From: Escherichia coli
Lineage (GTDB): Bacteria > Pseudomonadota > Gammaproteobacteria > Enterobacterales > Enterobacteriaceae
Length of the DNA: 64,000 nt
Assembly: GCF_044647545.1 (NCBI RefSeq)
Contig: NZ_CP172818.1
Reading direction: 5' to 3' (one strand)
Within the stretch, counting starts at the first letter, position 1; each line of letters starts with the position of its first letter. The translations under genes and the position numbers were made by a program. The notes beneath the pieces are model-generated. The model worked only from the letters and a program-made list of their open reading frames with translations. It did no database searches and was not told the origin of the DNA. This document shows, in pieces, positions 43,318 through 44,917 of this stretch.

Positions 43318-44256
43318 ATGAGTAAAGTCTTTATTTGCGCCGCCATTCCGGACGAACAGGCAATAAAGGAAGAAGGTGCCGTCGCTGTAGCCACTGCCAT
43401 TGAAGCCGGTGATGAACGTCGCGCCCGCGCAAAATTTCACTGGCAATTCCTGGAACATTATCCGGCTGCTCAGGACTGCGCTTATAAATTTCTTGTTTGC
43501 GAGGATAAACCCGGTATACCCCGCCCTGCCCTCGATTCCTGGGATGCTGAATATATGCAGGAAAACCGCTGGGATGAGGCGTCTGCTTCCTTTGTCCCGG
43601 TCGAGACTGAATCCGATCCGATGAACGTCACTTTTGACAACCTAGCCCCTGAAGTACAGAACGCTGTCATGGTTAAGTTCGACACATGTGAAAACATCAC
43701 TGTTGATATGGTGATTAGCGCACAGGAATTGTTGCAGGAAGACATGGCAACATTCGACGGCCATATCGTTGAAGCGTTGATGAAAATGCCAGAAGTTAAC
43801 GCTATGTATCCGGAGCTTAAGCTGCATGCCATCGGGTGGGTTAAGCATAAATGTAAGCCTGGTGCCAAATGGCCCGAAATTCAGGCAGAGATGCGCATCT
43901 GGAAAAAACGTCGCGAAGGTGAACGCAAGGAAGCCGGAAAATACACGTCTGTTGTTGATCTCGCCCGCGCCAGAGCCAATCAACAGCACACTGAAAATTC
44001 AACAGGAAAAATCAACCCGGTCATTGCTGCCATTCATCGCGAATACAAGCAGACATGGAAAACACTGGATGACGAACTGGCCTACGCTCTCTGGCCTGGT
44101 GATGTGGATGCCGGAAACATTGACGGCAGCATCCATCGCTGGGCAAAAAATGAAGTTATCGACAACGACCGCGAAGACTGGAAGCGTATCTCGGCATCAA
44201 TGCGCAAACAGCCTGATGCCCTTCGCTCACGACCGCCAGAATGCGCTGTTGCTTGA
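43318..44256 (+). CDS. ydfE: Qin prophage protein YdfE; last few codons read into the IS2-like remnant
   Basis: 312-aa ORF; from about 44233 the DNA is IS2 insD-like (cgccagaatgcgctgttgcttga...), so the C-terminus is insertion-derived. Confidence 0.75.
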   Translation: MSKVFICAAIPDEQAIKEEGAVAVATAIEAGDERRARAKFHWQFLEHYPAAQDCAYKFLVCEDKPGIPRPALDSWDAEYMQENRWDEASASFVPVETESDPMNVTFDNLAPEVQNAVMVKFDTCENITVDMVISAQELLQEDMATFDGHIVEALMKMPEVNAMYPELKLHAIGWVKHKCKPGAKWPEIQAEMRIWKKRREGERKEAGKYTSVVDLARARANQQHTENSTGKINPVIAAIHREYKQTWKTLDDELAYALWPGDVDAGNIDGSIHRWAKNEVIDNDREDWKRISASMRKQPDALRSRPPECAVA

Positions 44257-44917
44257 CCGAAAACCTCTGTACCGACATCAAAACGGGCACAAAATACAGG
44301 CAGAAAGTTACCGATGAAAGAAAGCAAATCAAGCGCAATGATACTCTGACGAGTACGAGAAAACTGCAGTGATAACGGCAACAGAGAATGAAAAAAACAA
44401 AAAACAAAAAAAAAAAAAAAAAAAAAAAAAAAAAAAAAACAAAAAAAAACGCCTGCGTGTCAGAGCGGTGGCGCTGAAAACTGCCCTGATTGTGAAGGCA
44501 CTGCACAGGGCGAATCACTACCAGACGGCATCAAATAGTGAAACAATACAGGACGATCATGCTGGGAGAAATGGAACGCCAACTTCGACACACGATTTTG
44601 CGCCGTCTCCAGTGGAGTGGCTGACGGATAATGGTTCATGCTACCGGGCTAATGAAACACGCCAGTTCGCCCGGATGTTGGAACTTGAACCGAAGAACAC
44701 GGCGGTGCGGAGTCCGGAGAGTAACGGAATAGCAGAAAGCTTCGTGAAAACAATAAAGCGAGACTACATCAGTATCATGCCCAAACCAGACGGGTTAATG
44801 GCAGCAAAGAACCTTGCAGAGGCGTTCGAGCATTATAACGAATGGCATCCGCATAGTGCGCTGGATTACGCTCGCCACGGGAATATCAGCGGCACCTGGC
44901 TTGATAAAGGCAATTAA
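44233..44917 (+). pseudogene. insD: IS2 transposase (InsD/OrfB) remnant, C-terminal portion, degraded and interrupted by a poly(A) tract
   Basis: Translation ...[63 protein letters not shown]...[12 protein letters not shown] matches IS2 InsD; upstream portion is increasingly divergent. Confidence 0.7.
44391..44449. repeat. poly(A) tract: 59 nt with only three non-A bases, including an uninterrupted A34 run (44406-44439)
   Basis: Direct inspection; lies inside the IS2-like remnant between sequences corresponding to ...gtgataacgg and cgcctgcgtgtc... Confidence 0.9.

Follow-up and report, generated by a model that had tools for sequence, protein, structure and literature searches.

We analysed a 64,000-nt stretch of Escherichia coli DNA (contig NZ_CP172818.1), referred to here as the window, in which a run of A residues interrupts sequence resembling the transposase of IS2. 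The locus lies at the right end of a Qin-like prophage, where the order is dicB, ydfD, the exonuclease gene (ydfE), the feature under study, an integrase gene and rspB. The parts of the locus, together with a sister tract elsewhere in the window, are the following.

43318-44240, + strand: 5' part of the exonuclease gene (ydfE homologue) of the sequenced strain, near-identical to and collinear with IMT16316 (L005)
44234-44240, no strand: CGCCAGA, a 7-nt stretch common to the exonuclease gene and IS2, and the switch point between them (alignments)
44241-44390, + strand: IS2 OrfB-like sequence, increasingly A-rich and with exonuclease snippets, for which the template would be the K-12 Qin remnant (substitution and indel spectrum)
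44391-44449, no strand: A tract, 56 of 59 nt being A, including an A34 run (TRF, base counts)
44450-44606, + strand: mixture of IS2 remnant and the strain's exonuclease sequence (exact matches, BLAST pieces)
44607-44905, + strand: C-terminal coding sequence of InsD (IS2 OrfB), near to the K-12 remnant (alignment, NCBIfam IS2 TnpB)
44906-45052, + strand: final part of the xis-int spacer, followed by the N-terminal coding sequence of the prophage integrase, from the strain (IMT16316 L005 from 9121)
5159-5490, no strand: sister A-collapsed N-terminal segment of dgcF (bounds coinciding with K-12 deletion junctions)

The IS2-like sequence and its K-12 counterpart

The exonuclease part of the locus is 156 nt longer than the K-12 pseudogene, the end of which corresponds to position 44084. 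Many genomes have an intact exonuclease gene that matches 44040-44240 at 99.5% identity, and over the last 60 nt to 44240 the sole difference from IMT16316 is a 1-nt insertion at 44228. Sequence resembling IS2 begins within 44234-44240. Both the NCBIfam IS2 TnpB model and the alignment to the K-12 remnant bear out the original prediction on this point, which had described insD-like sequence from 44233 with a good distal InsD. The open reading frame at 44369-44914 matched PRK09409 ('IS2 transposase TnpB') with E=1.4e-60, residues 27-168 aligning to positions 142-279 of the 301-position profile. Since its score of 205 bits lies well below the curated cut-off of 597, the reading frame is, by this model, only a fragment of IS2 TnpB; the IS3 family model gave 69.9 bits against 160.

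The terminal inverted repeats of IS2 are missing, and the left start is internal to OrfB. Upstream of 44234 we found neither IS2 OrfA nor its programmed frameshift region, the sequence there being exonuclease coding sequence instead. The 44607-44905 part carries few changes relative to the K-12 remnant, mostly to A, and at the right end the IS2 terminus that K-12 keeps up to its intQ junction (...GGAAATATAAGGGCAAATCCA) is replaced by xis-int spacer. Judged from its sequence as an IS2 element, the feature therefore fails, with no ends, no OrfA and only part of OrfB.

Among real sequences, the feature comes closest to the IS2 remnant that the Qin prophage of K-12 MG1655 carries, with the truncated exonuclease gene (ydfE) on one side and intQ on the other. 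This remnant, which we take to be insD-7, is labelled in RefSeq as a partial 'IS3-like element IS2 family transposase'. It shares with the window the neighbourhood (dicB-ydfD-exonuclease-IS2 fragment-int-rspB), the orientation and the part of OrfB that is retained, and 44453-44937 is 89.7% identical to it, reaching ~98% in the distal part. The two nevertheless differ at both junctions, with the exonuclease gene extending 156 nt and the integrase gene 147 nt further in the window, in which IS2 is also ~75 nt shorter on the left and has no terminal inverted repeat on the right. In addition, the A tract and the exonuclease-derived snippets are found in the window only. The K-12 junctions correspond to window positions 44084 and 45053, whereas the window's own junctions are at 44240 and 44906. 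Neither arrangement is derivable from the other by deletion and, by this comparison, the two do not represent the same insertion event.

The A tract and its flanks

The tract at 44391-44449 consists of 56 A and 3 C, with the A34 run at 44406-44439 and an A9 run at 44441-44449. TRF reported it as a period-1 array and, together with the base counts, agrees with the 59-nt poly(A) tract and A34 run that had been noted earlier. Because homopolymers reach no more than 9 nt in the 176 kb of K-12 and IMT16316 sequence used for comparison, chance is ruled out as the source of the tract. No inserted unit or flanking direct repeat was found beside it. The alignment with the K-12 Qin remnant places the tract, as a pure insertion of ~65 nt, between the adjacent IS2 positions GAGAGAGA and CTGCGTGTCA.

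Changes relative to the K-12 remnant are strongly skewed, with 30 of 52 substitutions leading to A and only 3 leading away from it. Similarly, A accounts for 81 of the 101 inserted bases, while 5 of the 7 deleted bases are G. A makes up 39% of 44241-44390, compared to 25% in the K-12 remnant. The original prediction had described these flanks as IS2 sequence degraded toward A. The A bias is real, but part of the apparent decay consists of pieces of the strain's exonuclease gene.

Exonuclease sequence within the IS2-like stretch

Within 44241-44905 we identified eight exact matches of at least 10 nt to the IMT16316 exonuclease gene that do not occur in IS2, where shuffled sequences gave an expectation of 1.6. 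Seven of the eight are collinear with the IMT16316 gene, and the longest measure 17, 16, 15 and 13 nt. To the right of the tract the matches lie at 44459-44473 (15 nt), 44479-44494 (16 nt), 44494-44504 (11 nt), 44535-44544 (10 nt), 44578-44590 (13 nt) and 44590-44606 (17 nt); to its left, AAAGTTACCG at 44304-44313 equals L005 7684-7693 of IMT16316 and is not in IS2. Since these exonuclease matches are embedded in it, the stretch that reads as a decaying InsD is a mixture of IS2 and exonuclease sequence, and the 'decayed InsD' peptide is, on the same evidence, translated from this mixed DNA rather than from a mutated IS2. A three-way assignment of bases with free long gaps had marked 118 positions as exonuclease-only, where shuffled exonuclease sequence gave 69 on average and 108 at most; it was non-discriminating and was replaced by the exact-match test.

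The tract itself is flanked by exonuclease anchors, L005 7243 at window position 44240 and L005 7985 at 44459, and sits where ~0.7 kb of the IMT16316-type exonuclease gene is without a counterpart in K-12. On the right side, 44906-45052 is absent from K-12, whose homology returns only at 45053, and 44904-45042 shows 21 differences from IMT16316, including deletions of G and T and changes from C to A. At 44918-44940, the right end of IS2 and the xis-int spacer are interleaved as a base-level mosaic. A real recombination junction would not be expected to alternate between two sources every few bases.

The locus in other genomes

We searched 5,426 complete E. coli genomes for the locus, requiring at least 80% coverage of 43900-45300, and none contained it. 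The same tract in independent genomes, which the original prediction had named as the observation that would speak against an artefact, was likewise not encountered among these 5,426. Exact-protein look-ups with the chimeric reading frames 44369-44914 and 43318-44253 returned no recorded protein. In a set of strains including IMT16316, ECONIH1 and 'ST648', the flanks are matched at 100% on the right (45060-49000) and at 99.7% on the left (41000-44240), with ~2,036 nt of exonuclease-xis-int sequence between the two matches. In IMT16316 (NZ_CP023815.1; locus region 4263477-4267587), this stretch contains the remaining part of a 2.47-kb exonuclease gene together with an excisionase gene and an integrase gene that is complete; IS2 is absent from it. 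The window tracks IMT16316 to 44240 and again from 44906, such that 665 nt stand for 1877 nt. Because the nearest relatives have an intact exonuclease-xis-int region here, the IS2 remnant is probably not present in the sequenced strain, and what is seen would be the K-12 reference showing through.

For the regions 27400-30750 and 19500-44240, the top-ranked matches were BS-01 (NZ_CP172816), BS-04 (NZ_CP172819), HS-01 (NZ_CP172817), BHUCD01 (NZ_CM183442) and BHUCD02 (NZ_CM183444), at 92-97% identity, and no ordinary strains. The best matches for 27400-30750 were only BS-01, HS-01 and BHUCD02 (92-96%). At the locus under study, BS-01 has a garbled mixture of IS2 and exonuclease sequence (L009 800-1850) with an A8 run at the equivalent point, while HS-01 (L008) has exonuclease-xis-int with frameshifts. 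BS-04 is garbled at the dgcF site (L007 about 1360-1850), with some G drop-outs the same as those of the window. The five records differ from the window in their SNP backgrounds and in the degree of garbling, and the A34 tract is present in none of them. They have a K-12-like size, K-12-like coordinates or a K-12-like structure but carry non-K-12 alleles, and their sequence is garbled and rich in homopolymers at K-12 structural sites.

A second tract and the window as a whole

A sister tract is found in dgcF. There, 5159-5490 stands for a 497-nt N-terminal segment of dgcF that is missing in K-12, and its bounds are exactly the K-12 deletion junctions. Reading into this segment, G residues drop out first, followed by A runs of 28, 17, 16 and 13 nt. 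The resemblance between the two tracts, to which attention had already been drawn, was thus correctly seen: the second falls on another structural difference from K-12 and follows the same course from G drop-outs to A runs. Both are, judged by their sequence, the same class of artefact.

Over its length, the window matches two genomes in different respects. Compared with IMT16316, it has 1 mismatch in 20,225 nt (5487-25709), is 100% identical over 25701-27548 and is 99.9% identical over 44900-64000. With K-12 MG1655, it is collinear across the full 64 kb at 92-98% identity, and it is free of mismatches to MG1655 at 33732-35550 and 38292-40535, two blocks that have no IMT16316 homologue. In K-12, relB and relE lie in the second of these. 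Outside the two blocks, the window is 1-7% divergent from K-12. Both blocks are probably sequence of the template and not of the isolate. The spacing between dgcF and rspB, ~40.9 kb in the window, is close to the 41.0 kb of K-12, compared to ~77 kb in IMT16316. At window position 18335, in the ydeJ region, 477 nt of K-12 are deleted, as in IMT16316, and the window reproduces this deletion save for a 2-nt loss (TA) at the junction. In contrast, each of the three long insertions relative to K-12 is either garbled or absent, namely the 497 nt of dgcF, a 34.5-kb prophage body and the 1877 nt of exonuclease-xis-int. Where the window departs from IMT16316, the position is almost always within or at a block of divergence from K-12.

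Other stretches of the window have their own peculiarities. Segment 40876-42457 cannot be aligned to K-12 and is ~99.5% identical to IMT16316, with 11 small differences that are mostly single-base deletions, often of G (40990, 41014, 42256, 42361-42375 and 42401). The density of such errors rises with divergence from K-12, from 1 in 20 kb of collinear sequence to 11 in this segment. At 27500-30700, the window has the structure of K-12 (tfaQ, a tail-fibre fragment and nohA) with 85-98% identity to it, and the IMT16316 counterpart is the 34.5-kb prophage body. No complete genome matched this stretch above 96%. It is probably a consensus built from reads of paralogous prophage genes that were forced onto the K-12 template. 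Finally, 35551-36412 is 90-93% identical to K-12 and has no high-stringency match in the local IMT16316 region; it may be divergent sequence that belongs to the strain, or else a further mixed consensus.

Origin of the sequence

Taken together, these comparisons make it very probable that the window is a reference-templated consensus, in which reads of an IMT16316-like E. coli were laid on the K-12 MG1655 chromosome, and not a de novo assembly. Such a consensus should have the structure of the template and the alleles of the sample, with MG1655 bases wherever IMT16316 has no sequence, and this is what we found. What was directly observed is the template pattern, the mixture of sequences and the lack of this arrangement in real genomes, and these observations support the data artefact that the original prediction had favoured. 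By these comparisons, the poly(A)-interrupted 'IS2 remnant' is not a real genomic feature.

The observed pattern could have arisen as follows. Reads of an IMT16316-like E. coli, probably long and noisy, would have been laid on MG1655 and a consensus called. Where a sequence is present in both strain and template, the consensus would be that of the strain; where the strain has no sequence and no reads map, the K-12 bases would stay. Reads from a long stretch of the strain that is absent from K-12 could not be placed, and such a stretch would be nibbled into from its edges and otherwise garbled into filler. At the present locus, the consensus would enter the strain's 1877-nt exonuclease-xis-int region from both edges, where K-12 has its IS2 remnant of ~0.7 kb, and would hook onto the IS2 template at chance similarities (CGCCAGA and CTGCG.GTCA...CTGC..TGAT.GTG). 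We infer from this that CGCCAGA at 44234-44240 is a point at which the alignment re-anchored rather than a recombination junction. The middle, which could not be placed, would then have been filled with A, one possibility being a default to the first symbol in empty or tied columns. The type of reads, the software and the reason for the A filler are what we infer from the sequence itself, and we know of no documented tool that drops G preferentially and emits A.

Reference bias in reference-guided (template-based) genome assembly is a known class of artefact. The window resembles it in that the template is kept where there are no sample reads and the structure of the template persists despite sequence from another lineage, and also in that deletions come through cleanly whereas long insertions disappear or become garbled. 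The drift towards A, which begins with the loss of G, departs from what is usual for reference bias and is a particular signature for which no named tool was matched. A literature search on this type of artefact returned nothing relevant.

Alternative explanations

An improbable alternative is a mixed sample, in which a majority IMT16316-like strain and a minority or contaminating K-12 laboratory strain were collapsed by an assembler or polisher. K-12 contamination is common in laboratories, and such a chimera would account for the K-12-perfect blocks and for mixed sequence at structural differences. However, with an IMT16316-like majority, a de novo assembler would keep the 34.5-kb prophage body and would not thread through the Qin prophage of K-12. 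Furthermore, regions common to both strains show no trace of K-12 alleles, with 1 mismatch in 20 kb, and the sibling deposits are of K-12 size with K-12-like coordinates. Natural recombination among lambdoid prophages could in principle also produce the abrupt switches between sequence that is 100% K-12 and sequence that is 100% IMT16316-like.

We consider it very unlikely that the sequence was computer-generated or deliberately corrupted, for example by a generative DNA model or an imputation that collapsed into homopolymer. The progressive decay into homopolymer with subsequent resumption in register would fit such an origin, as would the jumps of the mosaic at short common words. Yet the RefSeq records BS-01, BS-04 and HS-01 are garbled in the same manner at the same K-12 sites, pointing to an ordinary assembly pipeline, and over tens of kb elsewhere the window agrees base for base with real strains. 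Conversion of masked N positions to A was rejected, since both indels and genuine exonuclease sequence occur in the flanks and similar garbling is native to the RefSeq records.

A biological origin, with a true IS2 fragment flanked by truncated genes for the exonuclease and the integrase, a poly(A) insertion derived from, for instance, reverse-transcribed polyadenylated RNA or runaway slippage, and local A-biased mutation thereafter, is scarcely credible. The clean insertion of the tract between adjacent IS2 positions would be in line with it, and the 7-nt microhomology at the left junction would fit illegitimate recombination. Against this, the arrangement occurs in 0 of 5,426 genomes, its junctions and those of the K-12 remnant cannot be interconverted by deletion, and the 'IS2' harbours exonuclease snippets from across the supposedly deleted 1877 nt, in their original order. 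At the right junction the two sources alternate every few bases, a second tract lies exactly on another K-12 structural difference, and there is neither a target-site duplication nor an inserted unit beside the tract. We regard as equally remote the narrower claim that the A34 tract and its A-biased flanks are physically part of the isolate's DNA, whether through a polyadenylated RNA end or through slippage; if this were true, it would imply a mutational process not described in E. coli.

Eukaryotic retroposed insertions with poly(A) tails (LINE, SINE and processed pseudogenes) also contain an embedded long A run, a likeness that is superficial: they have an inserted unit upstream of the A run and a target-site duplication, and the tract in the window has neither. 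A retroposed poly(A) insertion was rejected on these grounds and on the position of the tract between adjacent IS2 positions. We also rejected adenine mutagenesis by a diversity-generating retroelement, because its direction is opposite to that of the substitutions observed here; the annotation of the matching K-12 and IMT16316 regions includes no reverse transcriptase gene. An ancient degenerate IS2 fragment, which the original prediction had left open, does not fit with embedded exonuclease pieces and with junctions that are incompatible with those of K-12 on both sides, the right one being a base-level mosaic.

Implications

The finding is of value for quality control and has no biological importance in itself. 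Like the window, the RefSeq 'complete genomes' BS-01, BS-04, HS-01, BHUCD01 and BHUCD02 look, from their sequences, like K-12-templated consensus assemblies. In such sequences, the gene order, pseudogenes, IS remnants and prophage content at K-12-specific sites would be those of the template and not of the isolates. Within the window, the structural differences between K-12 and the strain should be regarded as suspect (5159-5490, 27500-30700, 40876-42457 and 44085-45052), as should the blocks that are perfectly identical to K-12 (33732-35550 and 38292-40535). The five related records could, in the same way, mislead comparative analyses of E. coli genomes.
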